NCBI GenBank assembly: GCA_964514285.1 | Contig: CAZEQC010000008.1 | Span: forward strand, 6,181-70,180 | DNA length: 64,000 nt | Direction: 5' to 3' | From: an uncultured Anaerolineales bacterium | Lineage (GTDB): Bacteria > Chloroflexota > Anaerolineae > B4-G1 | Shown here: positions 33,577 through 52,528 of the stretch, piece by piece | Position numbering within the stretch: the stretch's first letter is position 1 | Layout: the number at the start of each line of letters is the position of its first letter | Made by a program: the position numbers and the translations under genes | Notes under the pieces: model-generated | Told to the model about the DNA's origin: nothing | Database searches by the model: none | What the model saw: the letters and a program-made list of their open reading frames with translations, nothing else

Positions 33577-34194
33577 ATGACGCGCCTTTTCGAACGAACG
33601 TCGAGGACCACTTGGTTGATCCTGGCGGCGGGGGTGCTGTTTCTCGGCGGCGGGCTCCTATTGGGCCTGCGCCAGTGGGGCGGACCCGACCGGGTCGAAC
33701 CTGTGGAATGGGATCTGACCCTGGTCGGCCGTGAGGGGCAGGAGCTGGTCCTCTCATACGACGAAGTAGTGTCGCTCCCCAGCGTGGAGACCCGTGCGGG
33801 GTTCTTCTCGTCCGTCGGGACGGTTTATGGCCCCTACACAGTGAGAGGGATTCCGCTTGATACGCTCCTCAATCTGGTCGGCGGCATATCCCCCTCCGAT
33901 GTGCTCTTCGTGGCCGCCAAAGATGGCTACTCCTGCGTCTTCGACTATGCACAGCTCCAAGGAGACATCGCCACATTCGAGCCGGACACACTCACGATGG
34001 TTCCGGAAGGAGATGTGCGATACCTCCTCATCTTCGAGCAGGACGGAGAGCCCTTACCTGAGAATAGCGGAAAGCCTCTCAGGCTGGCTGTCGCCAATCC
34101 CGACGGCCTGCTCACCGAAGGCCATTGGTGGGTCAAATGGGTCAAGCGCCTGGAGATACGGACCCTGACATCCGATTCGGACAATGGCGAATGA
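33577..34194 (+). CDS. N-terminally anchored single sulfite-oxidase-fold (Oxidored_molyb-like) domain protein lacking the Mo-ligand Cys
   Basis: TM 'WLILAAGVLFLGGGLLLGL', then 'WDLTLVG...VRGIPLDTLLNLVGG...FVAAKDGY...EQDGEPLPENSGKPLRLAVAN....GHWWVKWVKRLEI' (YedY-like C-terminal signature). Confidence 0.7.
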   Translation: MTRLFERTSRTTWLILAAGVLFLGGGLLLGLRQWGGPDRVEPVEWDLTLVGREGQELVLSYDEVVSLPSVETRAGFFSSVGTVYGPYTVRGIPLDTLLNLVGGISPSDVLFVAAKDGYSCVFDYAQLQGDIATFEPDTLTMVPEGDVRYLLIFEQDGEPLPENSGKPLRLAVANPDGLLTEGHWWVKWVKRLEIRTLTSDSDNGE

Positions 34195-34277
34195 GAAATC
34201 GAGGTCGACGTGAAAATCACTGCCAAACCTCGATGGGCTGCACCGGTGACGCCATCCTGCGCCCTGAGGAGGACCAC

Positions 34278-35354
34278 GTGAAGAACCTTTCCGTTATCCT
34301 CCTCGTATCGCTCTTCGCCCTTCTGCTGACCGGGTGCAGCGGCGGCGTCCCCATGCTTCCAGGCCAGGAGAAGAAGACGGAGATGCGCGTCCTCTTTGCT
34401 GGGAGCCTGATCCTCCCCTTCGACGACCTAGAACACGCCTTCGAGGAGCAGCACCCCAACATCGACGTCTTGATGGAGGGTCACGGATCGATTCAGTGTA
34501 TCCGTCAGGTCACGGAGCTCGAGAGACTGGCCGACGTCATCGCGGTGGCTGACTACTCGCTGATTCCGCTCCTGATGTATGAATCCAAGAACCCCGACAC
34601 AGACGAGCCCTACGCCGACTGGACGCTGCAGTTTGCCACAAACGAGCTCGGTCTAGCCTACACGGATGCCAGCGCCTATGCTGGGGAGATCGATGCCGAC
34701 AACTGGTATCGGATCCTATCCAGGCCCGATGTCGTCTTCGGCATCTCGGACCCACGGTTCGACGCCTGCGGCTACCGCGGCCTGATGTTGGGGCAGCTGG
34801 CGGTCTCGTACTACGACGAGCCGGATCTCTTCTATGACCTCTTCAGCGACCGATTCACCCAGCGGGTGGAGGTGCAGCGCGACCCGCGCGACGACCTCGA
34901 CACGATCCTGATACCCGAGGTGCTACGACCCGAAAGCGACAGCGGGCTGGTGATGCGCGGCTCCAGCGTCCAACTGCTGGGCGTGTTGGAATCGGGCGAT
35001 TTGGATTACGGCTTCGAGTACCTGAGTGTCTCCAGGCAGCGTGACCTGCGGTTCTTGGCCCTGCCCGAGGAGATCAACCTCAGCAGCGAAGCACACCAGG
35101 AGAACTACAGCCGCGCTCGTGTGAAGCTTGCCTATCAGCGTTTCGCCTCCGTCAATCCGGAGTTCGAGGGCAAGACCATCCACTACGGCCTGACCATCCC
35201 GTCCAACGCACCCCACCCCGATCTGGCCGTCGAGCTGATCCAGTTCCTCCTCGGCCCCGACGGTCAGAGGATCATGGCCGAGAACAACCATCCTATGATC
35301 CTTCCTCCCATCGTCGACCGCGAGGAGGCGCTGCCATGGGCACTCCAGCCGTGA
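34278..35354 (+). CDS. wtpA: tungstate/molybdate ABC transporter substrate-binding lipoprotein, WtpA type
   Basis: Lipobox 'LLLTGCSGG'. Collinear by eye with Pyrococcus WtpA: 'FAGSL..PF..L..AFEE.HPN..V..E..GS...IR.VTEL.R.ADV.A.ADY.LI', 'NWY.IL.RPDV.FG.S.P..D.CGYR', 'SG.LDY.F.Y.SV'. GTG after GAGGAGG. Confidence 0.85.
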   Translation: MKNLSVILLVSLFALLLTGCSGGVPMLPGQEKKTEMRVLFAGSLILPFDDLEHAFEEQHPNIDVLMEGHGSIQCIRQVTELERLADVIAVADYSLIPLLMYESKNPDTDEPYADWTLQFATNELGLAYTDASAYAGEIDADNWYRILSRPDVVFGISDPRFDACGYRGLMLGQLAVSYYDEPDLFYDLFSDRFTQRVEVQRDPRDDLDTILIPEVLRPESDSGLVMRGSSVQLLGVLESGDLDYGFEYLSVSRQRDLRFLALPEEINLSSEAHQENYSRARVKLAYQRFASVNPEFEGKTIHYGLTIPSNAPHPDLAVELIQFLLGPDGQRIMAENNHPMILPPIVDREEALPWALQP

Positions 35355-35388
35355 GGCGAGAAGTGGATTGCGTCACACGTGACCCGTT

Positions 35389-36168
35389 ATGACTCTTTTC
35401 TCTAGCCGTCTCTCGGCGCTGTTCACAGTCTTGGCCGCGCTCCTGGTCCTCTTCATCGCCTGGCCTCTGGTGCGTACCGTCACCGGTTCCCAGCCGGCGG
35501 TCACGTGGGAGACGCTCCTGGAGGCCGAGGTGCGGAATGCCATCCTCCTCACCTTCTACAGCTCGGCTTGGGCAACCGTCATCGCCTTCGTCACCGGGGT
35601 GCCCCTGGCGTATCTGCTTGCCCGCACCGACTTCCCCGGCAAGCGCTGGATTGAGGGAATCGTCGATGTGCCCGTCGTGGTACCCCATTCGGCCGCCGGC
35701 ATCGCGCTACTCTTGGTCTTCGGAAGGCGATCGTTTCTGGGCCGGACGTTCGGCCGGATGGGGCTCAGGTTCGTCTCGGCTGTTCCGGGCATTGTGATCG
35801 CCATGCTCTTCGTAAGCCTCTCGTTCCTGGTCGATGCGGCCCGCGAGGGGTTTGAGAGCGTCGATCCTCGGCTTGAGCGCGTAGCGCGCACCCTCGGTGC
35901 CTCTCCCTGGCAGACGTTTTGGCGCGTCTCCTTCCCGCTGGCGCGGCGCAGCATCCTCTCCGGGATGATCCTCATGTGGGCAAGGGGACTGAGCGAGTTC
36001 GGCGCCGTGGTCATCCTCGCCTATCATCCTATGATCGCTCCGGTGCTCCTCTTCGAGCGGTTTCAGTCGCTCGGGCTCGACTACGCCACGCCGGTGGCAG
36101 CCATCATTGTCATCATCTGCCTTCTCACGTTTGTAGCCCTACGCTTCGTCGCTCAGGAGAGGGAGTAG
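35389..36168 (+). CDS. wtpB: tungstate/molybdate ABC transporter permease (WtpB/ModB family)
   Basis: 6 TM and a CysTW/ModB-type EAA loop, 'ESVDPRLERVARTLGASPWQTFWRVSFPLA'. Confidence 0.85.
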   Translation: MTLFSSRLSALFTVLAALLVLFIAWPLVRTVTGSQPAVTWETLLEAEVRNAILLTFYSSAWATVIAFVTGVPLAYLLARTDFPGKRWIEGIVDVPVVVPHSAAGIALLLVFGRRSFLGRTFGRMGLRFVSAVPGIVIAMLFVSLSFLVDAAREGFESVDPRLERVARTLGASPWQTFWRVSFPLARRSILSGMILMWARGLSEFGAVVILAYHPMIAPVLLFERFQSLGLDYATPVAAIIVIICLLTFVALRFVAQERE

Positions 36169-36170
36169 CG

Positions 36171-37301
36171 ATGGGCCTGCGAGGGCGTCTGCAAACGCTC
36201 CGTACCCTGCACGCGGCCCACCGCCAGCGGCCCACGCAAGAACCAGCCGCGCTGCGGATCCAGGATCTCCACGTAGACCTTGAGGAGTTCCACCTGGAGG
36301 CAATAAACCTCGAGATCGCCGCCGGGGAATACTTCGTCCTACTCGGTCCGACGGGAGCGGGGAAGACTGTCCTCCTCGAGACAGTAGCGGGGCTCTTGCC
36401 CCCTCTCAGAGGACGCATCGTCATCGACGGGAACGACATAACCGAGACGCCCCCAGAGCGGCGAGGGTCGGGCTTCGTCTACCAGGACTACGCACTCTTC
36501 CCACACCTGAACGTGGCCGACAACATCGCCTTCGGCCTGAGGCTGAACCGGCACCTGCCAGGTGACGCAGTCGAGCGCCGAGTTACGGAGATGGCTTGCT
36601 TGCTGTCTATCCACCACCTCCTTCACCGTAGCCCCAACACACTCAGCGGGGGCGAGCGACAGCGGGTCGCCCTCGCGCGGGCCTTGGTTACGGAACCGGC
36701 CGTCTTGCTGCTCGACGAACCTCTCAGTGCCCTCGATCCCCAGACGCGCACGGGCTTGCAGCGAGAGCTGAGCCGCATCCACCGCCAGCTGAAAACAACC
36801 ACGCTCCACGTTACCCACGACTTCCAGGAGGCTGTGACGCTGGCCGATCGTATCGGGCTCCTCCACCAGGGCCGGATTGTCCAGGTTGGCACACCTGAGG
36901 ACATCTTCCGTCGGCCGGCCAGTTCGTTCGTCGCGCGATTCGTGGGCGCTCGCAACCTCCTGGTCGGTGAACTGGTGGAGACAACCGAGGCAGGGCATAG
37001 GAGGTTTGAAACCCGTGGGCTCGACATCGCCGTCGACACTGACCTCCGTGGGCAGGCCCACGCCTCCATCCGGCCCGAAGACATCTTCATCTCTAGGGAA
37101 CCGGTACGCACGGATCCCCGAAACTGTTATCAGGGCACCATCGCGCGCATCGCCGACCGGGGGTCACTCGTCTACGTGACGGTCGATGTCCCGCCGGCCT
37201 TCGTCTGTGCCATCACTCGATACTCGCTGGAGCAGATGGGGCTGCAGCCGGGGATGCCCGTTTACGTCACGTTCAAGCCGTCGGCTGTTCACGTGTTCTA
37301 G
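36171..37301 (+). CDS. wtpC: tungstate/molybdate ABC transporter ATP-binding protein with C-terminal TOBE domain
   Basis: Walker A 'GPTGAGKT', 'LSGGERQRVALARAL', 'LLLDEPLSALD' and the TOBE-like tail 'SLVYVTVDV....CAITRYSLEQMGLQPGMPVYVTFKPSAVHVF'. Confidence 0.85.
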   Translation: MGLRGRLQTLRTLHAAHRQRPTQEPAALRIQDLHVDLEEFHLEAINLEIAAGEYFVLLGPTGAGKTVLLETVAGLLPPLRGRIVIDGNDITETPPERRGSGFVYQDYALFPHLNVADNIAFGLRLNRHLPGDAVERRVTEMACLLSIHHLLHRSPNTLSGGERQRVALARALVTEPAVLLLDEPLSALDPQTRTGLQRELSRIHRQLKTTTLHVTHDFQEAVTLADRIGLLHQGRIVQVGTPEDIFRRPASSFVARFVGARNLLVGELVETTEAGHRRFETRGLDIAVDTDLRGQAHASIRPEDIFISREPVRTDPRNCYQGTIARIADRGSLVYVTVDVPPAFVCAITRYSLEQMGLQPGMPVYVTFKPSAVHVF

Positions 37302-37432: not shown

Positions 37433-38101
37433 GTGACGCTCGACCCGGCGCTCCTGCAGGTGGTGTCACTCTCCCTGCGGGTCTCGGGAATCGCACTTCT
37501 GTTCAGCACGGTCATCGGCATCCCATTGGGGGCGATGCTCGGACTGAACCGTTTCCGGGGCCGCCGGCTCATCATCGCTCTCCTCTATACCGGGATGGGC
37601 TTCCCACCCGTAGTGGTCGGCTTGTTCGTCTACTTGATGCTATCTCGAAGCGGCCCACTGGGTCAGATGACCGCGCCGGTGATCCCCGACCTCTTCACGC
37701 CGGGAGCCATGGTGGTCGCTCAGACGATCATCTCGTTCCCCTTGGTGGCGGGTTTCACCATGGCTGCCGTCATGGGCGTCGATCCGGGGCTCCGACGACA
37801 GGTCCAGGCCCTGGGTGCCACCCCTTGGCAGACGACACTGGCTATCCTCGTCGAGGCCCGCATCGGCGTCATCGTCTCGATCATCGCCGGCTTCGGCAGC
37901 ATCATATCCGAGGTTGGCGCCGTCATGATGGTGGGAGGGAACATCGAAGGCAGTACGCGCATGCTGACCACGGCCATCGTCCTGGAGACCCGGAAAGGGA
38001 ATTTCGACTTAGCCATGGCCATCGGCGTGATCCTCTTGGCTATCTCCTTCGCGGCGAATCTGCTGATGCAGCGGCTCCAGGGAAGGACGGTCGACGAATG
38101 A
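37433..38101 (+). CDS. tupB: tungstate ABC transporter permease, TupB type (true start probably upstream at a non-canonical codon)
   Basis: 5-6 TM. 'LDPALLQVVSLSLRVSGIALLFSTVIGIPLGAML' resembles TupB. The in-frame upstream 'IIDEIIRGISEAFRLIV' also resembles the TupB N-terminus. Confidence 0.8.
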   Translation: MTLDPALLQVVSLSLRVSGIALLFSTVIGIPLGAMLGLNRFRGRRLIIALLYTGMGFPPVVVGLFVYLMLSRSGPLGQMTAPVIPDLFTPGAMVVAQTIISFPLVAGFTMAAVMGVDPGLRRQVQALGATPWQTTLAILVEARIGVIVSIIAGFGSIISEVGAVMMVGGNIEGSTRMLTTAIVLETRKGNFDLAMAIGVILLAISFAANLLMQRLQGRTVDE

Positions 38102-38829
38102 GCGACTTCATCTACCGCATGCAGAACGTCTCTAAGACCTACGACGAACGGCGTGTGCTCACCGTCGACCATCTGCGTATCCGGCGTGGAGAGATCTTTG
38201 CCTTGGTCGGCCCGAGTGGTGCGGGCAAGAGCACGTTCCTGCGGCTGCTTAACTTCCTAGAAAGCCCAAACACAGGCCGCATCCGGTTCCTCGACGTCGA
38301 GTTCAGCTCCATGGGACAGGTTCCCCTACGACTCCGAAGACGCGTCACCACGGTCTTCCAGCGACCGATTCTCTTGAACCGCACCGTACACGCCAACGTG
38401 GCCTACGGGCTCAGGCTGCGCAGCGAGGAGGACGTAGGAGAGAAGGTCTGCCAAGCCCTGGAGGAAGTCGGCCTCGAGAATCACGCGCGTCAGCGTGCGA
38501 GGACCCTGTCCGGGGGCGAGGCCCAGCGAGTCGCCCTGGCGCGGGCCATTGTCCTGGACCCCGACGTCCTACTGCTTGATGAGCCGACGGCCAACCTCGA
38601 TCCCTACAACGTTGGCTTGATCGAGGAGATCGTTCAGCAGCGCAACCGTGAGCAGGGCACCACCCTGGTGTTGGTCACACACAATGTCTTCCAGGCCAAG
38701 CGGTTAGCCGACCGCGTGGCGCTGATGCTGGAAGGCGAGATCGTGGAGGTAGCCGACGTCGAGACCTTCTTCGAAGAACCCGACGATCCACGAACCGCCG
38801 CGTTCGTCCGCGGCGATATGATCTACTAA
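38098..38829 (+). CDS. tupC: tungstate ABC transporter ATP-binding protein, TupC type
   Basis: Walker A 'GPSGAGKST', 'LSGGEAQRVALARAI' and 'LLLDEPTANLD'. ATGA overlap with tupB. Confidence 0.85.
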   Translation: MSDFIYRMQNVSKTYDERRVLTVDHLRIRRGEIFALVGPSGAGKSTFLRLLNFLESPNTGRIRFLDVEFSSMGQVPLRLRRRVTTVFQRPILLNRTVHANVAYGLRLRSEEDVGEKVCQALEEVGLENHARQRARTLSGGEAQRVALARAIVLDPDVLLLDEPTANLDPYNVGLIEEIVQQRNREQGTTLVLVTHNVFQAKRLADRVALMLEGEIVEVADVETFFEEPDDPRTAAFVRGDMIY

Positions 38830-38849
38830 CCAATCATAAGGAGGAATCG

Positions 38850-39767
38850 ATGTTCCGACGAATCGTGAGTCTGTTGACGGCGCTGACTCTGTTGGCCGGC
38901 ACGCTGATGGCGTGCGGCCCGCAGCAACCAACCGAACTCCCACCCACCCCCACCCAACGTCCACCAACGGCCACAGAGACCGAAGCGGAGGAGACGCGGA
39001 CGCTGACCCTAGCCACCACCACCAGCACCGAGAACTCGGGGCTGCTCGGCTATCTGCTGCCCTTCTTCGAGGAGGAGTACAACACCGAGGTCGAGGTCAT
39101 CGCGGTGGGAACGGGCCAGGCCCTGCAGATCGGCGAGGATGGGAACGCCGACGTCCTGATGGTCCACGCCCGCTCTCTGGAGGACGCCTTCATGGATGCG
39201 GGACACGGCGTCCGGCGCGAGGACCTGATGTACAACGACTTCGTCATCGTCGGCCCGCGCGATGATCCGGCCGGCATCGAGGGCACGACCGATGCCGCCG
39301 CCGCTTTCGCTCAGATTGCGGAGGCTGAGGCTACCTTCATCTCCCGCGGCGACGAATCGGGCACACACACCAAGGAGAAGACCATCTGGTCCGCCGCGGG
39401 TGTCGAACCCTCCGGCGACTGGTATATAGCCGCTGGGCAGGGCATGGGCGCCGTGTTGACTATGGCCGACGAGCAGGAGGGCTATACCCTCAGCGACCGG
39501 GCCACCTACCTGGCCCGCACCCTGGAGGGGACTGACCTGGTCATCCTCACCGAGGGTGACCCGATCCTCTTCAATCCGTATGGCGTCATCGCCGTCAATC
39601 CCGACAAGAGCCCGGAGATCAACGCCGAGCTGGCCAACCAGTTCATCGACTGGCTCATCTCCGTGCCCACCCAGGAGAAGATCGCCGAGTTCGGTGTGGA
39701 GCAGTTCGGCTCGCCGCTCTTCACGCCCGACTCAGAGCCTTGGCGAGAGGCGAACCCGGACGGCTAG
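38850..39767 (+). CDS. tupA: tungstate ABC transporter substrate-binding lipoprotein, TupA type
   Basis: Lipobox 'LLAGTLMACG'. 'LTLATTTSTENSGLLGYLLPFFEEEYNTEVEVIAVGTGQALQIGEDGNADVLMVHA...YNDFVIVGP.DDPAGI' matches the TupA pattern. Confidence 0.85.
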   Translation: MFRRIVSLLTALTLLAGTLMACGPQQPTELPPTPTQRPPTATETEAEETRTLTLATTTSTENSGLLGYLLPFFEEEYNTEVEVIAVGTGQALQIGEDGNADVLMVHARSLEDAFMDAGHGVRREDLMYNDFVIVGPRDDPAGIEGTTDAAAAFAQIAEAEATFISRGDESGTHTKEKTIWSAAGVEPSGDWYIAAGQGMGAVLTMADEQEGYTLSDRATYLARTLEGTDLVILTEGDPILFNPYGVIAVNPDKSPEINAELANQFIDWLISVPTQEKIAEFGVEQFGSPLFTPDSEPWREANPDG

Positions 39768-39978: not shown

Positions 39979-40080
39979 ATTCTCGACGGGCGCGCTAACG
40001 AGTTGTCGCGCCCACCTGCCGGTGCGTTGCACCTGATCAGCTTATGTCCACGACAACTCGTTAGTGCGCCTATTCTCGAC
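39979..40080. mobile_element. MITE-like palindromic element of about 84 bp, flanked by a 9-bp direct repeat
   Basis: ATTCTCGAC at 39979-39987 and 40072-40080. The inner arms CTAACGAGTTGTCG (39995-40008) and CGACAACTCGTTAG (40051-40064) are perfect inverted repeats, extended imperfectly to about 21 bp. Confidence 0.35.
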
Positions 40081-40087
40081 CGTTAGC

Positions 40088-40115
40088 TTGACTTAGGCGC
40101 AGGCCTTGGTATAGT
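40088..40115 (+). promoter_or_regulatory. sigma70-like promoter (TTGACT-N16-TATAGT) for the MoSto-like gene
   Basis: -35 at 40088-40093 and -10 at 40110-40115, about 80 nt upstream of ATG 40194 (AAGGAGG RBS). Confidence 0.45.
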
Positions 40116-40193
40116 AAGTCCCTCTGGAGACCTCAACGCTCGTCAGATGAACTACCGTATGCTTATCTCAGACCGAAGCCACAAGGAGGTCGA

Positions 40194-41033
40194 ATGACCC
40201 TCAAACGTGACGAAAGCGGTCGATTGCACATCGACACGCCCCTTATGGCCGAGTCCCTTATGGACAAGTCACTCCTCGATGCCACCGAGACGGAGACCGT
40301 CTTTCGTGCCTTGCCCGATCTCAACGTCATCAAATTGGGCGGGCAGAGCATCATCGATCGTGGCCGTGAAGCAGTGCTCCCCCTCGTCGAGGAAATCGTC
40401 ACCGCCCGTTCGGAGCACCAACTCCTGGTCACCACCGGTGGCGGAACTCGCAGTCGTCACGCCTATGTCATCGGGATGGATCTGGAGATGCCCACTGGCG
40501 TGCTGGCCAAGCTCGGCTCCAGCATCAGCGAGCAGAACGCCCTCATGCTCTCGATGCTGCTGGCGCCTTACGGAGGCATCAAGATCGGCCACGACGACCT
40601 GGTCAAGCTGCCCGCCTACATGGCCCTCGGGTCCATTCCCGTCATGCACGCTATGCCACCCTACGGGCTCTGGGAGGAACCGCCCGAGAGGGGCCGCATA
40701 CCACCGCACCGCACGGACAGTGGCGTCTTCCTCACCGCCGAGGTCGTGGGAGCCAGGCGCTGTATCCTGGTCAAAGACGAGCAAGGTTTGTTCACCGCCG
40801 ACCCCAAGAAGGATTCCGACGCCGAGTTCATCCCCGAGGTAGAGGTTAGCGAGCTTCTGGAGATGGACCTGGACGACCTGCCCGTGGAGCGCTCTATGCT
40901 GCGTGCCCTGGTCAGCGCTCGCAGCGTCCACGAGGTATTCATCATCAACGGGCGTGAGCCCGGGAACCTGACTCAAGCGCTTGCCGGGGAGAACCCAGGG
41001 ACGCGAATCTATCGCCAAAGCCACTCTCAATGA
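40194..41033 (+). CDS. molybdenum-storage-protein (MoSto, MosA/MosB) homologue, amino-acid-kinase fold
   Basis: Collinear by recall with Azotobacter MosB: 'ILPD..VIKIGGQSVIDRGR.AV.PLV.EIV.AR..H.LL..TG.GTR.RH', 'GVLA.LGSS...QNA.ML', 'MPPY.LW', 'IPP.RTD.G.FL.AE', 'VKDE.GL.TA.PK...DA.FIP', 'VNG..PGNLT.ALAGE..GT.I'. Confidence 0.8.
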   Translation: MTLKRDESGRLHIDTPLMAESLMDKSLLDATETETVFRALPDLNVIKLGGQSIIDRGREAVLPLVEEIVTARSEHQLLVTTGGGTRSRHAYVIGMDLEMPTGVLAKLGSSISEQNALMLSMLLAPYGGIKIGHDDLVKLPAYMALGSIPVMHAMPPYGLWEEPPERGRIPPHRTDSGVFLTAEVVGARRCILVKDEQGLFTADPKKDSDAEFIPEVEVSELLEMDLDDLPVERSMLRALVSARSVHEVFIINGREPGNLTQALAGENPGTRIYRQSHSQ

Positions 41034-41038
41034 TCTCT

Positions 41039-41437
41039 CTATGCATCGCTGGCTTCCCCGGCAGGGGTTCGGCCCTCCTTAGCCGCGCGTCCGTCTGCCA
41101 AGCCGCCGACACCACGCGAGCGCCGAGGGCCGCGCGGTTGGGGCGGGGCCACCTCGAACGTCCCCCCCTCGACCTGGAGCGCATAACCTTCGCTCAGCGC
41201 CAACGCCACCTGACGGCGAGCATGGGAGACGATCCGCTGAAAGGTAGAGCGAGAGACGCCCATGCACTCGGCCGCCTCGGCCTGGGTCAGGCCCTCAAGA
41301 TCGGCCAATCGCAGGGCCTCTCGCTCCTCCTGCAACAGGGTCACGCGACGCAGCCCATCCAGCGGTACGCCGGCTGGCTTGTAGATAGCCGGTTTCGGCT
41401 TCTGTGGTATGATGCGTCGCTTGCGGGGCCGGCCCAC
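41039..41437 (-). CDS. DUF134 (UPF0251) family HTH protein, putative regulator
   Basis: GTG start after GAGGGA gives 'MGRPRKRRIIPQKPKPAIYKPAGVPL...LLQEEREALRLADLEGLTQAEAAECMGVSRSTFQRIV', the DUF134 pattern (sigma70 region-4-like HTH). Confidence 0.75.
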   Translation of the reverse strand: MGRPRKRRIIPQKPKPAIYKPAGVPLDGLRRVTLLQEEREALRLADLEGLTQAEAAECMGVSRSTFQRIVSHARRQVALALSEGYALQVEGGTFEVAPPQPRGPRRSRGVGGLADGRAAKEGRTPAGEASDA

Positions 41438-41438
41438 G

Positions 41439-41713: not shown

Positions 41714-41742
41714 AGTATACACGACGTAGAAAGGTCTGTCAA
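41714..41742 (-). promoter_or_regulatory. near-consensus sigma70 promoter (TTGACA-N17-TATACT) for the small ORF + DUF134 operon
   Basis: On the minus strand the -35 is 41742..41737 and the -10 is 41719..41714. The inverted repeat TATAC-N9-GTATA (41701-41719) overlaps the -10. Confidence 0.5.
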
Positions 41743-41747
41743 CCAAC

Positions 41748-42494
41748 GTGAAGCCAGGCGAAACAAGACAAGCACGGATGGTGGAGGAAGCAGGTTTCTT
41801 CATCGGCCTCGACGACACCGACACCCGTGAATCCCGTGGCACTGGCCACCTTGCGCGTCACATCGCCGCTGTGCTGGCGCGCCACTATCCGCTGTTGGGC
41901 GTGACGCGTCACCAGTTGCTCTTCGATCCTCGCGTGCCGTACACCGCGAAGAACAGCTGCGCCGCTATCGTATGCGCGTCGAACGGTCACATCGACCCCC
42001 AGGCATTGATGAGTCGCGTCCAGGCAATCATGCGGAAGCACTTCAACCCCGGCAGCGACCCAGGCCTCTGCATTGCGCCGCTCGGATACGAGCCGCGCCT
42101 TCCCGAGCCGATCACCGCTTTCGGGCGCCGCGCGAAGCAGGAGTTGGTGACTCAAGAGGAAGCCCGCTCCTTGGCCGCCGCTCACGCCATTCCCTTGGCC
42201 GGGCTGGGTGGCAGCGAGGACGGCGTCATCGGCGCGCTGGCCGCCGTCGGCCTGGCGGCTGGCGGAGACGACGGTCGTTATGTGATGGTCGGACGTTCCA
42301 GGGACCTCCAGGGCCTTCAGCCGATCACCGCCGTGCTGGAGGCGGGCATCGCCGATGTGCGCACTCTCGACGGCCGCCCGGTGACTGCGGGCCTCATCCT
42401 CAGCGACAAACTGCGCCCCGCGCGGCGTGGCGCCCAGCCGATCGCCTTCGTCGAGTGGGCTGAGGGGCACTGGCGTCCTCTCAAGCTCGATTGA
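41748..42494 (+). CDS. stand-alone homologue of the TiaS N-terminal kinase-like (TCKD) domain; function unknown
   Basis: 'FFIGLDDTDTRESRGTGHLA', 'DPRVPYTAKNSCAAIV', 'DPGLCI' and 'EDGVIGALAAVGLA' parallel archaeal TiaS 'IGIDDTDS..GMCTTYLA', 'NP.IPYKTRGNGA', 'NPG', 'RGLIGALAAVG' (from memory). Start is GTG 41748 or ATG 41778. Confidence 0.6.
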   Translation: MKPGETRQARMVEEAGFFIGLDDTDTRESRGTGHLARHIAAVLARHYPLLGVTRHQLLFDPRVPYTAKNSCAAIVCASNGHIDPQALMSRVQAIMRKHFNPGSDPGLCIAPLGYEPRLPEPITAFGRRAKQELVTQEEARSLAAAHAIPLAGLGGSEDGVIGALAAVGLAAGGDDGRYVMVGRSRDLQGLQPITAVLEAGIADVRTLDGRPVTAGLILSDKLRPARRGAQPIAFVEWAEGHWRPLKLD

Positions 42495-42515: not shown

Positions 42516-43514
42516 ATGGCCCATCTCGACGCCTACAACCGCCCCATCAGCTACTTGCGGATCTCAGTCACCGATCGCTGTAACTTGCGCTGCATCTACT
42601 GTATGCCGGATGAGGGCGTCCCATCCGTCAGCCATCATCGCATCCTGCGCTACGAGGAGATCGAGACCATCGTCCACGCCGCAGCCGATCTGGGGATCAC
42701 TAAGGTACGGCTCACCGGCGGCGAGCCGCTCGTCCGGCACGGCATCGTCGATCTGGTGCGTAAGATCGCCCGCATCCCCGGCATCGACGATCTGGCCATG
42801 ACCACCAACGGCATCCTGCTGGCTCGCTACGCTCAGCATCTCTCCGACGCTGGGCTCCACCGGGTCAACATCAGCTTGGACACCCTCGACCCAGAGCGCT
42901 TCCGCCACATCACCCGCCGCGGCGAGCTGCAGGACGTCCTATCCGGCATTGAGGCCGCCCGGGCGGCTGGCCTGCGCCCCATCAAGATCAACACCGTCGT
43001 GATCCGCGGGATGAACGCTGACGAGGTCGTCGACCTCGCTGCCAAGACGCTGGAGGCTGGATGGTGGAACATCCGTTTCATTGAGCTGATGCCGGTCGGC
43101 GACGGCGAACTGATGAACACGGCGTGGGAAGAGCAGGTCGTGACGGTCCCGGAGATTCGCCAGCGGATCGAGACGGCACTGGGCGAACTGGAGCCCGTCA
43201 AGATGCGCGTCGGCAGCGGCCCTGCCCGTTACTACCAGCTTCCGGGGGCGAAGGGCACCATTGGCTTCATCAGCCCCATCAGCCAGCACTTCTGCTACCG
43301 CTGCAACCGCTTGCGACTCACTGCTGACGGACAGCTGCGCCCCTGCCTGCTCTCCGATCAGGAGCTCGACCTGCGCACCCCGCTGCGCCAGGGCGCCGGA
43401 GCTAATCAGATCAAGGCCCTGATCATCGAGGCCATCAACCGTAAGCCTATGCGCCACCATCTGGATGAGCACCTCCATCCAGAGCGGCGCGCCATGTCAC
43501 AGATCGGAGGATAG
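42516..43514 (+). CDS. moaA: GTP 3',8-cyclase (radical SAM)
   Basis: 'YLRISVTDRCNLRCIYCMP', 'VRLTGGEPL' and the C-terminal cluster 'FCYRCNRLRLTADGQLRPCL'. Confidence 0.95.
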   Translation: MAHLDAYNRPISYLRISVTDRCNLRCIYCMPDEGVPSVSHHRILRYEEIETIVHAAADLGITKVRLTGGEPLVRHGIVDLVRKIARIPGIDDLAMTTNGILLARYAQHLSDAGLHRVNISLDTLDPERFRHITRRGELQDVLSGIEAARAAGLRPIKINTVVIRGMNADEVVDLAAKTLEAGWWNIRFIELMPVGDGELMNTAWEEQVVTVPEIRQRIETALGELEPVKMRVGSGPARYYQLPGAKGTIGFISPISQHFCYRCNRLRLTADGQLRPCLLSDQELDLRTPLRQGAGANQIKALIIEAINRKPMRHHLDEHLHPERRAMSQIGG

Positions 43515-43517
43515 GAG

Positions 43518-44006
43518 TTGGACACACGCCAAGTCGTCCGCCTGCGGGTTCACGAAGGCTACTGGGGCCATGACTGGAACTGCGCCGTCACGACGCTCCG
43601 CATCCTCAGCGAGGTCTTCGATATCTCCCTTCATCGGCAGGTGCTCGACGGGGCCCTGGGTATGCACGGGGCCGGGGGCTATCGCGCTCAGTGTGGCTTG
43701 GTGGAGGGTGCCCTTATGGCCATCGGAATCCTTGGCAAGGCCAGAGGGCTCGACGACGACGCCGTCGTGGAGGCGTGTTACCGCTTTGCCGAGGCCTTCG
43801 AGGATCGCTTCGGCAGCCTGCTCTGCCAAGAGTTGCGGCCCGAGGGATTCAGCCCCGACAATCCGCCCCACCTGTGCGAGGAACTGACGCGAAGAGCGAT
43901 CCTCTTCGACATCCAGGTCATAGGCGACGAGCTAATCAGAAAGAAGGAGAGGGAGAGAGCAGAGGGGGTGCCGACCGACCCTCTCGACCCCTACAGTGAA
44001 CGATGA
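43518..44006 (+). CDS. C_GCAxxG_C_C family putative redox-active protein
   Basis: 'NCAVTTL', '[18 protein letters not shown]', 'FGSLLCQEL' and '[11 protein letters not shown]' reproduce the C...GCxxxG...C...C pattern. TTG start. Confidence 0.7.
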
Positions 44007-44485
44007 GCCTTTCACACGTGGACGAAGAAGGACGCATCCGCATGGTCGGCGTGGGTCACAAACCCGACACCGTGCGTCTGGCCGTCGCCAAGGGCGAGGT
44101 ACGGATGAGGTCAGAGACACTGCGCCTCATCGCTCAGGGCGAAGCACCCAAAGGGGATGTGCTGAATACGGCGCGGATTGCCGGCATTATGGCTGCCAAA
44201 CGCACCCACGAGCTTATCCCCCTCTGTCACCCCCTGCCGCTCACCAAGGTCGACGTCGATTTCGCCATCGACCCGGACGCTTCGCGAGTCGTCATCACGG
44301 CCACGGCCCGCTGCACCGGCAAGACGGGCGTGGAGATGGAGGCCCTTACTGCCGTCAGCGTCGCCGCCCTGACCGTCTACGATATGGCCAAGGCGGTTGA
44401 GAAGACGATGGAGATAGGCCGGATTCGCTTGGTGACTAAGACAGGTGGGAAGAGCGGGGACTGGGAACGTGAGGATGACGTATGA
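44003..44485 (+). CDS. moaC: cyclic pyranopterin monophosphate synthase
   Basis: '[24 protein letters not shown]', '[29 protein letters not shown]', '[23 protein letters not shown]'. Confidence 0.95.
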
Positions 44486-44775
44486 CAATGAGGAAGGAGA
44501 ACGGAGGGCGAAGCGTGGAAGAGAAACTCATTCGGGTGCGGGTCAAGTTCTTCGCTGCACCGCGGCAGGCCCTGGGCACCGACGAGATCGATCTCGATAT
44601 CGCAGTGGGCTCGACGGTCAAGGATCTCATCCGCGTGCTGCGGGACAGATATCCGGTCCTGGAAAGCTATACCCGCTTCCTCAACGTGGCCGTCAACCGC
44701 GCCTATGTCGGTATGCAGACCGAACTCCACGATGGCGACGAGGTCGCCTGTCTGCCTCCGGTAGGCGGGGGGTAA
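44482..44775 (+). CDS. moaD: molybdopterin synthase sulfur-carrier subunit (MoaD/ThiS fold)
   Basis: '[21 protein letters not shown]' and the C-terminal '[14 protein letters not shown]' (Gly-Gly terminus). Alternative GTG start at 44536. Confidence 0.85.
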
Positions 44776-44778
44776 GCT

Positions 44779-45234
44779 ATGAAGCTCTTTGAGATAACGA
44801 CAGCGCCGCTCTCCGTCGACGACGTCGTCGCTCGCCTCGCCCGCCCGTCCATTGGCGCCGTCACCACCTTTGTCGGGGTGGTGCGCGGCGAGACCGACGG
44901 GCGCGAGACCCGGCGACTCGAGTACGAGGCGTACCCCGAGATGGCCGAGGAGCAGCTCCAGCGGATCGGCGACGAGATCCGTCGGCGGTGGCCCACGATT
45001 CGCCAGGTGGCCATCGTCCACCGCATCGGACACCTGCAAATCGGGGAGACCATCGTCGTCATCGCCGTATCATCCCCTCACCGTCAGGAGACCTTCGCCG
45101 CGACGCACTATGCCATCGATCGGCTCAAGGAGATCGTGCCCATCTGGAAGAAGGAGGTCTGGAAGGACGGAGAGGCTTGGCGGAGTGAGCAGACAGAGAG
45201 CAAGCGAGCACAGGAGCAGGAGGAGAGAGAATAG
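44779..45234 (+). CDS. moaE: molybdopterin synthase catalytic subunit
   Basis: 'GAVTTFVGVVRGE', 'LEYEAYPEMAE', 'VAIVHRIGHLQIGETIVVIAVSSPHRQEAF', 'IDRLKEIVPIWKKE'. Confidence 0.9.
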   Translation: MKLFEITTAPLSVDDVVARLARPSIGAVTTFVGVVRGETDGRETRRLEYEAYPEMAEEQLQRIGDEIRRRWPTIRQVAIVHRIGHLQIGETIVVIAVSSPHRQETFAATHYAIDRLKEIVPIWKKEVWKDGEAWRSEQTESKRAQEQEERE

Positions 45235-46460
45235 TGGAACCCATGCTGAGCTTGGAAGAGGCCCAAGAACGAGTACTGAGCGTGTTTGAACCGGTGGAGA
45301 CGGAGTGCGTGCCCATCCTCAAAGCCGCCGGACGCGTGCTGGCCGAGGATGCCTACGCCGACGCGGATATCCCTCCCCACGCCAACTCGTCCATGGACGG
45401 CTTCGCCGTCCGGGCTGTCGATACTGCCGCTGCTGATCCAGGCGATCCCGCCCAGCTGCGCATCATCGGTGATCTGCCCGCCGGCTACGTCCCCGAGCGG
45501 GCCGTGAAGCCCGGCACGGCCATCCGCATCATGACCGGCGCGCCGCTCCCACCGGGTGCCGATGCCGTGGTCAAGGTCGAGGATACAGAGACCCAGGATG
45601 ACGCCGTGCACATCCTCACCGCAGTCGAGCCTGGCAACTACGTCCGGCCGGCCGGCGAGGACGTGCGCCAGGGCTCCCTCGTCCTCCGCCACGGGACGCG
45701 ACTCCGCCCTCAGGAGATCGGCATGCTGGCTGGGCTGGGACACGAGCAGGTCACCGTGGCCCGTAAACCCCGCGTGGCGATCCTCGCCACGGGAGATGAG
45801 TTGGTGGGCATCGACGAACCTCTCCTCCCAGGCAAGATTCGCAACACCAACACCTACTCGAACGCGGCCCAGGTTCTCGAGCACGGCGGCGAGCCCATCC
45901 TCCTCGGAATCGCCCGCGATCGCGTCGAGGAGCTGACGGCCAAGATCAGGGCCGGGCTGGATCAAGGTGTCGATCTCTTCCTCACCTCCGGCGGCGTCTC
46001 CGTCGGGGACTTTGACCTGGTGAAGGAGGTGCTGGCCACCGAGGGGCAGATGGCCTTCTGGCGTGTGCGGATGAAGCCGGGCAAGCCCCTGGCGTTCGGA
46101 GACGTCGGCGGCGTCCCGGTGCTCGGACTACCCGGCAACCCCGTGTCGGTCATGGTCTCCTTTGAGATGTTCGTCCGCCCCGCCCTTCTGAGGATGCAGG
46201 GCGCAGTGGACTGGCGCCGTCCCACCGTCGAAGCCACCCTGGTGGACGAGATCAAGCAAAAGGACGAGAGGCGCCACTTCGTCCGCGTCCACCTCGTCTG
46301 GGACGAGGGATCCTATCGCGCCTACCTCACCGGCGCCCAGGGGTCGGGCATCCTCAGCTCTATGGTCAAAGCCAACGCTCTGGCCATCATCCCTGAGGAC
46401 TGGGATCACGCCCCGGCTGGAGCGCGCGTGGAGGTGATGATGCTGGAGTGTCAGAGGTGA
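45234..46460 (+). CDS. moeA: molybdopterin molybdo/tungsto-transferase
   Basis: 'LSLEEAQERVL', 'PPHANSSMDGFAVR', 'IMTGAPLPPGADAVV', 'VAILATGDELV', 'IRNTNTY', 'DLFLTSGGVSVGDFD', 'KPGKPLAFG', 'LGLPGNPVS'. Confidence 0.9.
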   Translation: MEPMLSLEEAQERVLSVFEPVETECVPILKAAGRVLAEDAYADADIPPHANSSMDGFAVRAVDTAAADPGDPAQLRIIGDLPAGYVPERAVKPGTAIRIMTGAPLPPGADAVVKVEDTETQDDAVHILTAVEPGNYVRPAGEDVRQGSLVLRHGTRLRPQEIGMLAGLGHEQVTVARKPRVAILATGDELVGIDEPLLPGKIRNTNTYSNAAQVLEHGGEPILLGIARDRVEELTAKIRAGLDQGVDLFLTSGGVSVGDFDLVKEVLATEGQMAFWRVRMKPGKPLAFGDVGGVPVLGLPGNPVSVMVSFEMFVRPALLRMQGAVDWRRPTVEATLVDEIKQKDERRHFVRVHLVWDEGSYRAYLTGAQGSGILSSMVKANALAIIPEDWDHAPAGARVEVMMLECQR

Positions 46461-49751: not shown

Positions 49752-50636
49752 TTACCCAAGAACATACATCACCATCACAATGCTGACACCCCAGAGCAGA
49801 ATATCTACCTGCAACGCTCGGTCAGAGAACACGATCTCCTCCGGGGCACCTCCCAGCTCTTTGACGTGCATCAGGTACAGATAGCGAAAGATACCGTACA
49901 GCACGAATGGAATCGTCAGCATCATCGTGTGGTTTTGTGGCAGATTCGGCGCCGAAAACGTGTAGAGCGCATAAGCCACCAATGTCGACGCCGTGACGAT
50001 GCTGATGATGTGGTCCAGCAGCGACAAGTTGTATTGCCGAAGCGCCTCACGATGCCCCGCGGCGTTCTCCCTTAGCAGAACCAGCTCGTGACGCCGCTTG
50101 CCAAAGCCGATCAAGAGCGCCAAAAGCGTCATGCAGACGTAAAGCCAGGGAGAGAACCGTTCTGCATCCACCAGCGGCACCCCTGCCGCGACGCGCAGCA
50201 GGAAACCACTCGCCACCAGCATCACGTCGATGATCACCAGGTCCTTAAGCCAAAACGAATAGGCGATCTGAACCAGCAGGTAGCCAGCCAGGATCGCACC
50301 CAGCCAAACATCAAGCACGAATCCTAAAGGCAAGGCGATCAATGGAATGATCAAAGCCGCGACCCTCGCCGTGCCAACGCCCAACGCCCCGGAGGCCAGT
50401 GGGCGATGACGCTTCCGCGGATGGTTCCGGTCCTTCTCGATGTCGGCCAGATCGTTGATAATGTATACCGTTCCCGACGTCAGACACAGGAGCACAAATC
50501 CCGCAGCCGTCCGGGCCAGGTAATGAAGCTCAAATAACTTCTCATCGAAAACCAGGGGGGCAAAGACGAACACATTCTTGAACCACTGCTTGGGCCGCAT
50601 GGTCTTGATCAAGCCGATGAGTGTACCCTTCCTCAT
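49752..50636 (-). CDS. UbiA-family prenyltransferase, decaprenyl-phosphate phosphoribosyltransferase-like
   Basis: 'MRPKQWFKNVFVFAPLVF', 'YIINDLADIEKDRNHPRKRHRPLASG' and 8-9 TM. The start overlaps the AOR stop (TGATG). Confidence 0.8.
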   Translation of the reverse strand: MRKGTLIGLIKTMRPKQWFKNVFVFAPLVFDEKLFELHYLARTAAGFVLLCLTSGTVYIINDLADIEKDRNHPRKRHRPLASGALGVGTARVAALIIPLIALPLGFVLDVWLGAILAGYLLVQIAYSFWLKDLVIIDVMLVASGFLLRVAAGVPLVDAERFSPWLYVCMTLLALLIGFGKRRHELVLLRENAAGHREALRQYNLSLLDHIISIVTASTLVAYALYTFSAPNLPQNHTMMLTIPFVLYGIFRYLYLMHVKELGGAPEEIVFSDRALQVDILLWGVSIVMVMYVLG

Positions 50637-52528
50637 CACACACCACTCCGCTCCAAAGACTCGGCTAGCCAACCGAGCTCCAGCTCTTGGAGCTTGGCCC
50701 GTGTCGGGCGCCCCCGGTCGTCCCAACCCGCCATCTGGTAGTAGAGCGCCTTCGCAGCCTCGAAATCCGCCGCTTCGATCACAATCCCGTCGCTCGGCCC
50801 ACCCCTCAGCGGAACCGTCATCTTAGCGGGGAGTGTGTCCGCCTCCGCGCCGACACCTTCCCGGGCGTTGAATGCTCGCAGCATAGTCAAACGTCGCTCA
50901 CCCACCTTCATCAGCTCCCAGAGGCTCACCCCCCAGCCGGTGACCGCCCGCACCAGGTCCACCAGCTGGTTGGCGTCGTAGAGCTGAAAGGACGGGCCCC
51001 AGACGAACTGGCAGACTGTGACACTGTCCACGAGGCTGTTCCACCGCTGCGTGTAGACGGCAAAACGCACCTTCTCCGCATTCAACGTCCTCAAGGGCTG
51101 GGGGTCCCGCAGATCCAGCTGAGCCATTCGATCGGGATAGCCACCATAGGTCGGATCATGCTGATGAGACTCATGATCGGCGCCAAAGGGATTGACCCCA
51201 TAGATCAAGGCCAGGCTCCGCTTCAATTGGGGCATGTGGGCCGGGAACTCATGCTTCTTCGCTGCGACCACCAGGTCTTCGCCGACGCCCAGCGCCTCCG
51301 CCGCCCGTGTCGATCCTTCGCCCAGCAGCTTACCAAATCCCTTGCGCTCCCCGATACGCTTCACCATCTCCGTCAGGGCCTCGGCGTTGCCGAAGCGTAG
51401 CTCAACGCCTTCGGTCTCCTCCGGTCCAATCAGCCCTCGTTCGTAACAGTCCATCGCCCAGGCGATCGTCGCCCCGCACGAGATCGTGTCCATTCCGTAC
51501 ATATTGCACAGCTGATTCGCGTAGGCGATGGCTTCCAGATCGGAGACGCCACAATACGACCCCATAGTGGCCAGTGTCTCGTACTCCGGGCCTCCATAGC
51601 GCGGATCGAGATCGTAACGCCCCTCTCGGGATTCGACCACCCGCTTGCAGCGGACGACACATCCATAGCAGGTATCGCGCTCCTTGAGGATTGTATCCGC
51701 CATGCGTTGTCCGCTGATCGCCTCAGCGCCTTCGAACACGCCGCTGGACCAATTGCGTGTCGGCAGACCTCCCACCCTCTGCTGCGCAGTGACCGTCTGA
51801 GCGGTCCCCAGCAGACCAAGACCGTAAACGTCCGAGGTCTCGAAGTGCTCAGCGCCCCACTTCGCCAAAGCCCTCACGCCCTCCCGATCTGCCCATTCCG
51901 GGCGGCTATGCCCTCGAACGGCGACCGCCTTCAGGTTCTTCGAGGCCATCACCAGCCCCATGCCCGTGCGGCCGTTCGCTCGGTTAGCGTAGTTGATCAA
52001 GGCGCTAAAGCGTACGCCTCTCTCGGCTGCTGGTCCACACTGCAGGACTTGCACACGATCGTCATCGAGCTCTTCCCGGAGCATGTCCTCCACTTCAGCC
52101 GTAAACGCTCCCCACAGATGCTCACCATCCCGCAGCTCGGCCTCCCCATCCTCGATCCACAGATAGAGAGGTCGTTCGGCCTTTCCTCGGATCACAACCC
52201 CATCAAAGCCCGCGAACTTGAGCTCTGCCGGCCAAAACCCCCCGGCCTGAGCATCGCCAACGAGGCCCGTCTCAGGCGACTTGGCGGTGGCAACCACGCG
52301 AGACTGCCCGGACACCGACGCCCCGACCACGACCCCCGTCATCAGACAGAGGGTATTCTCCGGGCCAAGCGCATCCGCGCCGGGAGGCGTCTGCTTGAGG
52401 AGGTAGTAGGCCCCCATCGCGCTCCCACCCAGGTACTTGCGGTAGAATCTCTCATCAGGTTGTTCGACGGTCAGCTCCTCCGTCGTCAGATCGACGTGAA
52501 GGATCCGACCTTGGTATCCATAGGGCAT
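50636..52528 (-). CDS. aor: aldehyde:ferredoxin oxidoreductase family tungstopterin enzyme
   Basis: 630 aa. 'GYQGRILHVDLTTEELTVEQPDERFYRKYLGGSAMGAYYL', 'DTCYGCVVRCKR', 'GPEYETLA' and 'CGVSDLEAIAYANQLCNMYGMDTIS' match AOR blocks. Confidence 0.9.
   Translation of the reverse strand: MPYGYQGRILHVDLTTEELTVEQPDERFYRKYLGGSAMGAYYLLKQTPPGADALGPENTLCLMTGVVVGASVSGQSRVVATAKSPETGLVGDAQAGGFWPAELKFAGFDGVVIRGKAERPLYLWIEDGEAELRDGEHLWGAFTAEVEDMLREELDDDRVQVLQCGPAAERGVRFSALINYANRANGRTGMGLVMASKNLKAVAVRGHSRPEWADREGVRALAKWGAEHFETSDVYGLGLLGTAQTVTAQQRVGGLPTRNWSSGVFEGAEAISGQRMADTILKERDTCYGCVVRCKRVVESREGRYDLDPRYGGPEYETLATMGSYCGVSDLEAIAYANQLCNMYGMDTISCGATIAWAMDCYERGLIGPEETEGVELRFGNAEALTEMVKRIGERKGFGKLLGEGSTRAAEALGVGEDLVVAAKKHEFPAHMPQLKRSLALIYGVNPFGADHESHQHDPTYGGYPDRMAQLDLRDPQPLRTLNAEKVRFAVYTQRWNSLVDSVTVCQFVWGPSFQLYDANQLVDLVRAVTGWGVSLWELMKVGERRLTMLRAFNAREGVGAEADTLPAKMTVPLRGGPSDGIVIEAADFEAAKALYYQMAGWDDRGRPTRAKLQELELGWLAESLERSGV

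Follow-up and report, generated by a model that had tools for sequence, protein, structure and literature searches.

A one-gene homologue of the molybdenum storage protein in a tungsten-centred locus of an Anaerolineales bacterium

The window analysed here is a stretch of 64,000 nucleotides (nt) of DNA from an uncultured Anaerolineales bacterium (phylum Chloroflexota). It lies on contig C8 of a metagenome-assembled genome (MAG) of 4.5 Mb in 254 contigs, with a completeness of 94.6% and a contamination of 6.3%. It contains a gene for a homologue of the molybdenum storage protein (MoSto), set among genes for tungstate uptake and for synthesis of the pterin cofactor of molybdenum and tungsten enzymes (Moco/Wco); the features of the locus are collected in Table 1. 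In Azotobacter, MoSto is an (alpha-beta)3 heterohexamer whose two subunits are encoded by the paralogues mosA and mosB. To our knowledge, MoSto is the only protein known to build polyoxometalate clusters with ATP, and it has been studied in one organism, where it serves nitrogenase. An earlier reading of this DNA, made from the letters of the window and referred to here as the sequence-only reading, proposed that the single gene, transcribed from its own promoter, encodes a homo-oligomeric store for tungsten (or for both tungsten and molybdenum) in a bacterium that does not fix nitrogen. The open reading frame (ORF) was confirmed as that reading gave it, and the neighbours it named (two tungstate importers, Moco/Wco genes and an AOR-family enzyme) are all present.

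Table 1. Features of the MoSto locus, with positions in the window
Feature	Position	Strand	Remarks
Moco/Wco riboswitch	26888..27036	+	head of the island; RF01055, 62.4 bits
wtpA-wtpB-wtpC, tungstate/molybdate ABC importer	34125..37301	+	WtpA 302.9 bits against a cut-off of 242.75; WtpC 439.9 bits against 440, at the cut-off
tupB-tupC-tupA, tungstate ABC importer	37433..39767	+	best matches, sub-threshold
MITE-like palindromic insertion, 102 nt	39979..40080		flanked by 9-bp direct repeats ATTCTCGAC
Sigma-70-type promoter-like site, TTGACT-16-(TG)TATAGT	40088..40115	+	78 nt before the MoSto start; 10 of 12 consensus positions
Shine-Dalgarno sequence AAGGAGG	40183-40189	+	4 nt before the MoSto ATG; read from the sequence
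S-type MoSto gene, encoding P0001	40194..41033	+	ATG start; 279 amino acids
DUF134 helix-turn-helix gene	41039..41437	-	GTG start 1 nt past the p77 stop; converges on the MoSto 3' end
p77, unannotated basic protein of 77 amino acids	41439..41672	-	ribosome-binding site AAGAGGAGG; about 400 nt downstream of MoSto
Promoter-like site for p77-DUF134, TTGACA-17-TATACT	41714..41742	-	11 of 12 consensus positions
Stand-alone TiaS-TCKD / methanogenesis-marker-11-like protein	41748..42494	+	GTG start as called
moaA, C_GCAxxG_C_C protein, moaC, moaD, moaE, moeA	42516..46460	+	pterin cofactor synthesis and metal insertion
AOR-family tungstoenzyme	50636..52528	-	one of 7-8 in the genome

The encoded protein, P0001, was compared with protein families, PDB sequences and PDB structures. 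Pfam placed it in AA_kinase (78 bits). In a phmmer search of PDB sequences the best match was the beta subunit of MoSto (2ogx_B, E = 3.7e-75), in which residues 8-267 align with residues 13-272 of P0001 with zero gaps. The alpha subunit came second (2ogx_A, E = 3.6e-52), and UMP kinases trailed at only about 1e-9. P0001 is 52% identical to A. vinelandii MosB, again without gaps, and 39% identical to MosA; the full-length collinearity with MoSto subunits that the sequence-only reading had described was thus borne out. The 15 top PDB fold matches of an AlphaFold model of P0001 (predicted local distance difference test score, pLDDT, 84.6) were all MoSto chains, beta first and then alpha. The best of them, MoSto beta, had an E value of 9e-27 at 51-52% identity, and isopentenyl-phosphate and UMP kinases followed at about 1e-12, more than 10 orders of magnitude behind.

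Against the curated kinase families of NCBIfam, P0001 fell far under every cut-off. It came closest with the archaeal pyrH model TIGR02076, where it reached 58.5 of the required 158 bits; with TIGR02075 it gave 26.9 bits against 243.9. The true pyrH gene of this genome, and hence its UMP kinase, lies on contig C28 and scores 284.3 bits against the cut-off of 243.9. P0001 therefore resembles MoSto over its full length and well above its likeness to other kinases. The ratio of nonsynonymous to synonymous substitution rates (dN/dS) between the MoSto gene and its relatives was mostly 0.05-0.10, with one distant pair at 0.18 and with dS partly saturated. Across 28 sequences of the type to which P0001 belongs (called S-type here) from two phyla, 77 alignment columns are invariant. 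The gene is under strong purifying selection, and P0001 is a genuine, strongly conserved member of the MoSto family. A second ORF at 41030-41830 (+), which overlaps the MoSto stop, was considered as a hidden mosA and rejected: it is an Arg-rich spurious frame with zero family matches, an artefact of high G+C.

The single gene noticed in the window also held for the genome and for the order. A six-frame search of the genome with P0001 returned the MoSto locus and, weakly, pyrH, and tblastn with nine queries (P0001, AvMosA, AvMosB and six more divergent members) found no second MoSto-type gene in the MAG. Where Azotobacter has an adjacent alpha/beta gene pair, there is one gene here, in the window and in the MAG alike. 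Within the same order, MoSto is carried by 37 of 145 species genomes (25%) and is single-copy in 35 of these 37. The two exceptions each have two S-type copies on separate contigs, one contig being short. The identities of these copies to P0001 are 87/74% and 86/71%; they come from different sublineages, a picture that looks like bin contamination. Since the searches of this genome and the single copy across the order agree, the one-gene state is a property of the lineage and not an assembly gap. In a sample of 401 genomes from the phylum, four carry two copies (about 50% and 40-48% identity), as three adjacent alpha/beta pairs and one separated pair.

The one-gene form is common. The nearest proteins to P0001, at 80-88% identity, come from Anaerolineae and Anaerolineales MAGs and bear the automated labels 'uridine kinase' (NCBI) and 'molybdenum storage protein' (JGI). 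More than 6000 metagenome protein clusters (90% identity) were found at E <= 1e-10, and clustering at 50% reduced the whole family to 80 representatives under E 1e-30. Species genomes, scanned in the same way, hold at least 563 loci; the 80 that score best are all single-gene. The hosts of these best 80 are Anaerolineae, Thermoflexales, Caldilineaceae, a few Acidobacteriota, one Chitinophagales MAG and Bacillota. The MoSto proteins of Syntrophomonadaceae, Gelria and Desulfoscipio, at 56-58% identity, are among the best 80 of the at least 563 loci.

A tree of 61 rows was built under LG+C20 and rooted on seven Chloroflexota PyrH sequences. PyrH was split off from the MoSto family by a branch with 100/100 support, which, together with the family cut-offs, sets P0001 apart from bona fide kinases. 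S-type proteins form a clade of their own, distinct from MosA, MosB and PyrH. Within it, Bacillota sequences make up one subclade, and P0001 falls in the other, of Chloroflexota and Acidobacteriota (99/99 support). The MosA clade sits on a long branch; in the MosB clade, AvMosB stands beside genes from Chloroflexota pairs on very short branches; and a long-branched group of metagenomic representatives is also in the tree. The S clade grouped with MosB, leaving MosA outside, with 98/93 support in a PyrH-rooted tree where long branches meet. Monophyly of MosA and MosB was not rejected in an approximately unbiased (AU) test (p = 0.13), and loss of the alpha gene is therefore not established.

Two further patterns were seen among the paired genes. 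In one Chloroflexota genome (G095; locus L049, contig C22), two MoSto-type genes at about 5697-6497 and 9070-9864 are separated by about 2.5 kb. They form their own clade outside MosA and MosB, and both have the N-terminal His arm. This pair looks like an independent duplication, so that heteromeric MoSto may have had more than one origin. The alpha/beta pairs of three other Chloroflexota genomes (L046-L048; G224, G315 and G339) lie very close to the A. vinelandii proteins. The terminal branch of AvMosB is 0.065 and its sister group consists of the G315 and G339 copies, a topology suggesting that the classical mosAB pair was recently transferred horizontally between phyla.

Residues were compared in an alignment of 80 distinct S-type sequences with five sequences of the MosB clade and five of the MosA clade. 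The nucleotide-site motifs K47, G49-G50, D55, G82/G84, R86, R88-H89 and N115 are invariant in all clades, as are PPY155-157, R173, D175, G198, P204 and N252-G253. Sixteen positions are common to S-type and beta sequences only, including M154, K194, Q51, T85 and E183. In the Azotobacter protein, ATP and molybdate reportedly bind in a groove of the beta subunit, over which the N-terminal arm of alpha locks onto the beta-bound ATP, and molybdate is said to be pushed past Met-beta149, a proposed gate. K47 is the equivalent of Lys-beta42 and M154 that of Met-beta149; both are invariant in the 80 S-type sequences, and in the MosA clade Phe stands in place of the gate Met. P0001 has, in other words, a beta-type ATP site with the catalytic Lys and the Met gate.

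Five residues (H12, H133, E161, R168 and H172) are common to S-type and alpha sequences only. Among them H12, in the motif R10-L11-H12 of the N-terminal arm, corresponds to alpha-His10. It is 90-100% conserved in the S clade, and alpha-His10 is kept in every alpha sequence aligned; the N-termini of the MosB clade read ...ELE(A/E)LLMERSL and have no arm histidine. By homology, the motif would give P0001 a working arm that closes over the ATP of the neighbouring subunit. If the mechanism described above holds, S-type proteins unite its two parts in one chain, as a homomeric pump would need. The residue pattern also fits a division of functions between alpha and beta after duplication.

The residues that hold the metal clusters follow another pattern. 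Glu129 and His156 of alpha are reported to hold the Mo8 cluster, and His140 the Mo3 cluster on the three-fold axis; none of the three is present in P0001. Conserved in S-type sequences only are K130, H152, P149, G128, S112-E113 and C190. On the segments that bear the alpha ligands, K130, H133, Y142 and H152 are candidate cluster anchors, and the S-specific residues together with H133 and Y142 make up a wider set of candidate cluster contacts. The clusters of MoSto are bonded covalently to His and Glu (PMC6294228). By their titles, PDB entry 6RIS has Lys-beta42 mutated, 6H6W is an alpha-H156A variant, and 2OGX and 7ZSE record the loading of Azotobacter MoSto with polyoxotungstate.

To assess the surroundings of the gene, 23 proteins of the window were searched by tblastn against 98 related loci. 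The commonest neighbour is the TCKD protein, whose gene lies downstream on the MoSto strand in 50 of them. In about 35 loci tupBCA lies upstream on the same strand, DUF134 keeps its position in about 46, and moaA-moeA are nearby in about 13. A recurrent module is seen: tupBCA, MoSto, p77-DUF134 on the opposite strand, TCKD and then moa genes. At the level of genomes, TupA is found in 20 of the 37 MoSto-positive members of the order (54%) as against 24 of the 108 MoSto-negative ones (22%).

The genome as a whole encodes 7-8 AOR paralogues, two moeA genes and one gene of the DMSO-reductase family, which means that AOR-type enzymes, normally tungsten-dependent, dominate its demand for pterin cofactor. 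Its sole PF00384 gene (C30:29628-30998) lies within an open frame of 1425 amino acids with one in-frame TGA and probably encodes a selenocysteine-containing enzyme of the formate dehydrogenase type. No nitrogenase was found: PF00148 (NifD/K/E/N) had zero matches in the genome, and control genomes were detected correctly. The organism is thus a non-diazotroph, as the sequence-only reading had assumed, and its MoSto has no link to the supply of FeMo-cofactor to nitrogenase. The one-gene MoSto is a variant within a known storage-protein family; in non-diazotrophic anaerobes it is linked to genes for tungstate uptake and for the pterin cofactor.

Two genes accompany MoSto on the opposite strand. 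The N-terminal sequence of p77 reads MSKLYVRHRRHVGKGAGRPRFAIVASHG... and its homologues occur at 52 of the 98 MoSto loci. A profile search detected p77 at 38 of 60 well-flanked S-type loci (63%) and at 0 of 4 alpha/beta pair loci, and in this genome it is single-copy, at the MoSto locus. Within the order, 12 of 13 p77-positive genomes are also MoSto-positive. Chloroflexota loci have the p77-DUF134 unit converging on the MoSto 3' end; at Bacillota-type loci p77 shares the strand of MoSto and lies directly 5' of it, 35-50 nt from the MoSto start. Its dN/dS is 0.10-0.14, with dS partly saturated. No relatives of p77 were found in Pfam, in PDB sequences or by fold search. Its model (pLDDT 72.6) is a small beta-beta-alpha-beta unit, and Arg7, Arg9, Pro19, Arg39, Glu42 and Leu57 are invariant. 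Since the near-complete genomes G443 (95%) and G451 (100%) have a MoSto gene without detectable p77, the protein is frequent but not obligatory. An ORF of 190 amino acids at 41039-41611 proved to be a false merger of the DUF134 frame with upstream sequence.

In the case of the TCKD protein, relatives align only from about residue 10-17 on, and translation probably begins at the ATG at 41778 (MVEEAGFFIGLDD...) instead of the called GTG at 41748. Among the genomes of the order, 28 have both MoSto and TCKD, 9 have MoSto only, 7 have TCKD only and 101 have neither. This corresponds to an odds ratio of 45 (Fisher p = 7e-16), values that, like the other co-occurrence figures given here, are uncorrected for phylogeny and MAG incompleteness.

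The spacer between tupA and MoSto measures 426 nt in the window. It contains one of two promoter-like sites found in 2.2 kb, where 0.3 would be expected from shuffled sequence. Comparable elements (TTGACx / TATA(C/G)T) lie 63-127 nt before MoSto in 12 of 22 relatives, whose spacers are otherwise dissimilar on inspection. The site in the window and its counterparts in relatives agree with the promoter that the sequence-only reading had assigned to the gene. No riboswitch was detected in the spacer at the Rfam gathering level, the sole riboswitch of the window being the one at the head of the island. Several relatives have only 77-167 nt between the end of tupA and MoSto; at one locus (L053) a Moco riboswitch precedes tupB, and at another (L062) it precedes moaA, with the MoSto gene after moeA. 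The spacer in the window is widened by a palindrome of 102 nt. Contigs C84 and C91 carry copies with 86-88% identity over 74-75 nt, partial ones lie on C59, C110 and C200, and none was found in the related loci. For this reason it was rejected as an operator of MoSto and is regarded as an insertion resembling a miniature inverted-repeat transposable element (MITE), one of a family of such repeats in this genome.

The reading we favour, and consider rather likely, is that P0001, as the only MoSto-type subunit, forms an ATP-driven store or pump for tungsten or molybdenum oxyanions, which accessory proteins may join. By homology with UMP kinase and MoSto, P0001 would assemble into a hexameric cage, a trimer of dimers. 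Mg-ATP and tungstate or molybdate would bind in the beta-type nucleotide groove, and ATP would drive the oxyanion through the Met154 gate into the inner cavity, where polyoxometalate clusters would form. One polypeptide would in this way unite the catalytic site and gate of beta with the N-terminal His arm of the alpha clade. From this store, metal would pass to MoeA and to the pterin cofactor of the many AOR tungstoenzymes. Loading, plugging or release may involve p77 and the ATP-enzyme TCKD, both of them probably accessory and neither obligatory, since complete relatives carry the MoSto gene without them.

The two central proposals of the sequence-only reading were not fully borne out. The homo-oligomer stands in so far as the gene for the cage subunit is single, but the proposal overlooked the conserved, non-homologous p77 and the co-occurring TCKD; p77 and the TiaS-like ATP enzyme probably take part in this organism. 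As to tungsten, the tungsten-centred setting is upheld by tupBCA at about 35 of 98 loci and by the distribution of TupA, and the choice of metal is drawn from that setting. Tungsten is favoured by the linkage to tupBCA, the presence of wtpABC, the many AORs and the polyoxotungstate loading of the Azotobacter protein.

Several observations weigh against a homomeric tungsten store. The alpha ligands Glu129, His156 and His140 correspond to Gly132, Gly158 and Tyr142 in S-type proteins. With all three replaced, the best-characterised cluster sites are impossible and the cluster chemistry cannot match that of Azotobacter; the clusters and their anchoring must differ. An excess of AORs in MoSto-carrying genomes was looked for and rejected (7.1 copies with and 6.4 without the MoSto gene, p = 0.2). 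Only a quarter of the species of the order carry MoSto, and every genome there has AORs. The neighbours at Bacillota loci are less clearly related to molybdenum or tungsten. Finally, p77 is present here and at 63% of well-flanked loci, and the functional unit may not be a pure homomer. Because the gene is accessory and unrelated to AOR number, a buffer against fluctuating supply fits better than an essential biosynthetic step.

The presence of p77 leads to the alternative that lies closest, a heteromer in which S-type MoSto and p77 would together form the cage or pump and p77 would take over roles of the missing alpha such as plugging, gating or cluster nucleation. It overlaps the favoured reading and differs solely in the word 'homomeric'. 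We regard it as possible but doubtful. It gains from the frequency of p77 at S-type loci (52 of 98; 38 of 60 when well flanked) and its absence from the four pair loci, from its place 35-50 nt directly 5' of MoSto on the same strand in Bacillota, from the 12 of 13 p77-positive genomes that are MoSto-positive and the single copy beside MoSto here, and from its low dN/dS; the invariant Arg7, Arg9 and Arg39 would suit oxyanions. Yet 22 of the 60 well-flanked S-type loci are without p77, as are, by detection, the near-complete G443 and G451, and the fold search gave p77 no structural analogue. In Chloroflexota, moreover, it is co-transcribed on the opposite strand with the DUF134 DNA-binding protein, which would fit a regulatory role as well. 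It is unlikely, in our judgement, that P0001 is no store at all but an enzyme that uses ATP to activate tungstate or molybdate, or to discriminate between them, and hands the oxyanion to MoeA or a transporter with the help of TCKD. Such an enzyme would account for the absence of all three covalent alpha ligands, for the frequent position of the gene inside or at the end of riboswitch-controlled tup/moa operons and for the strong co-occurrence with the ATP-using TCKD, and a metagenomic fusion of CbiQ with a MoSto-like domain (P0135) points the same way. Against it, the full architecture of the subunit is kept without indels relative to MosB, including the Met gate, which makes sense only if the oxyanion crosses the wall; many AORs occur in genomes that have no MoSto gene, and a gene found in 25% of species is what would be expected of a buffer and not of a biosynthetic step.

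That P0001 is an ordinary UMP, amino-acid or isopentenyl-phosphate kinase, similar to MoSto through the shared fold only, is very improbable. The Pfam AA_kinase match and the weak match to archaeal pyrH (58.5 bits) are what such a kinase would give, but the latter score is far under its cut-off of 158, as are all other kinase scores under theirs, and the true pyrH of the genome (284 bits against 243.9) is a different gene. The 52% identity to MosB, the 100/100 branch that separates the family from PyrH and the consistent synteny with tungsten and molybdenum genes also speak against it. A decaying, non-functional mosB left behind after loss of mosA is effectively refuted by conservation. The grouping of S with MosB to the exclusion of MosA (98/93) in the PyrH-rooted tree would agree with such a remnant, but monophyly of MosA and MosB was not rejected in the AU test (p = 0.13), leaving alpha loss unestablished. 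The dN/dS of 0.05-0.18, the 77 invariant columns over 28 sequences in two phyla, the at least 563 species-genome loci and more than 6000 metagenome clusters, and the promoter conserved in relatives are not those of a decaying gene.

Known systems place the one-subunit store among both relatives and functional analogues. Azotobacter MoSto (2OGX, 4F6T, 6GU5, 6RIS, 7ZSE) shares with P0001 its fold, length, ATP-site motifs, Lys-beta42 and Met-beta149, and the N-terminal His arm is alike in P0001 and MosA. P0001 differs in lacking alpha Glu129, His140 and His156 and in its own conserved residues Lys130, His133, His152, Cys190 and Ser112-Glu113. Azotobacter MoSto is tied to nitrogen fixation, whereas the window host is an anaerobic, AOR-rich non-diazotroph whose MoSto is linked to tupBCA and moa and accompanied by p77, the DUF134 regulator and the TiaS-TCKD-like protein. 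The UMP kinase PyrH (archaeal, 2BMU and 2BRX) has the same amino-acid-kinase fold, at about 22% identity and a Foldseek E value of about 1e-12 as against 1e-26 for MoSto. PyrH forms a homohexamer, a trimer of dimers, from which the assembly of a one-gene MoSto is likely to descend. Small storage proteins of the Mop/molbindin class bind a few mononuclear oxyanions without ATP and are not known to form a polyoxometalate cage. These TOBE-domain proteins and Tub of Eubacterium limosum (PMC11980592) have the same proposed role, the buffering of tungstate or molybdate inside the cells of anaerobes to supply cofactor synthesis, and a fold unrelated to that of MoSto.

The literature searched treats MoSto as the alpha/beta protein of Azotobacter. 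It has been called a protein without known homologues (PMC6448029), and MosAB has been counted among the rarest molybdenum-related genes, restricted to select taxa (PMC13144720). The 2025 description of Tub as a tungsten storage protein has MoSto only in its reference list (PMC11980592). That literature gave no paper in which MoSto is tied to Chloroflexota or a one-gene form is described. If the S-type protein stores tungsten, it would explain how a scarce metal is buffered in AOR-rich anaerobes. Structural work and nanotechnology would gain a simpler cage made from one gene, and the protein would show a homomeric enzyme splitting into a pump subunit and a scaffold subunit. A bolder picture may be sketched as a tentative one that we think less than probable. 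Here the widespread single-gene MoSto would represent the ancestral-like state of the family: in anaerobes, an ATP-driven nanocage of polyoxotungstate (or of mixed tungsten and molybdenum), with alpha arm and beta pump united in one polypeptide. The basic p77, as a new subunit of 7-9 kDa, would complete or regulate it, a TiaS-type enzyme would empty or load it, and the alpha/beta protein of Azotobacter would be a late, subfunctionalised derivative.

A few minor observations were made at related loci and in metagenomes. In a Desulfoscipio geothermicus MAG (L128), tandem Moco riboswitches at 9932-10220 (-), with 49.7 and 38.1 bits, precede a Pfam-negative ORF of 258 amino acids (9038-9814, -) that converges on the MoSto gene. 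The metagenomic protein P0135 (732 amino acids) combines a CbiQ-type T component of an energy-coupling factor (ECF) transporter (residues 9-147) with a C-terminal MoSto-like domain (463-724); the fusion, a possible gene-call artefact, hints that MoSto-like proteins are tied directly to membrane transporters. At ten loci (L051, L057, L060, L063, L064, L066, L070, L072, L075 and L080), the gene directly 5' of MoSto ends in ...G(V/L)(I/V)EIQVK*, an ending that resembles the C-terminus of a sulfite-oxidase-fold (Oxidored_molyb) domain and may be compared with the window ORFs at 27182-34194.

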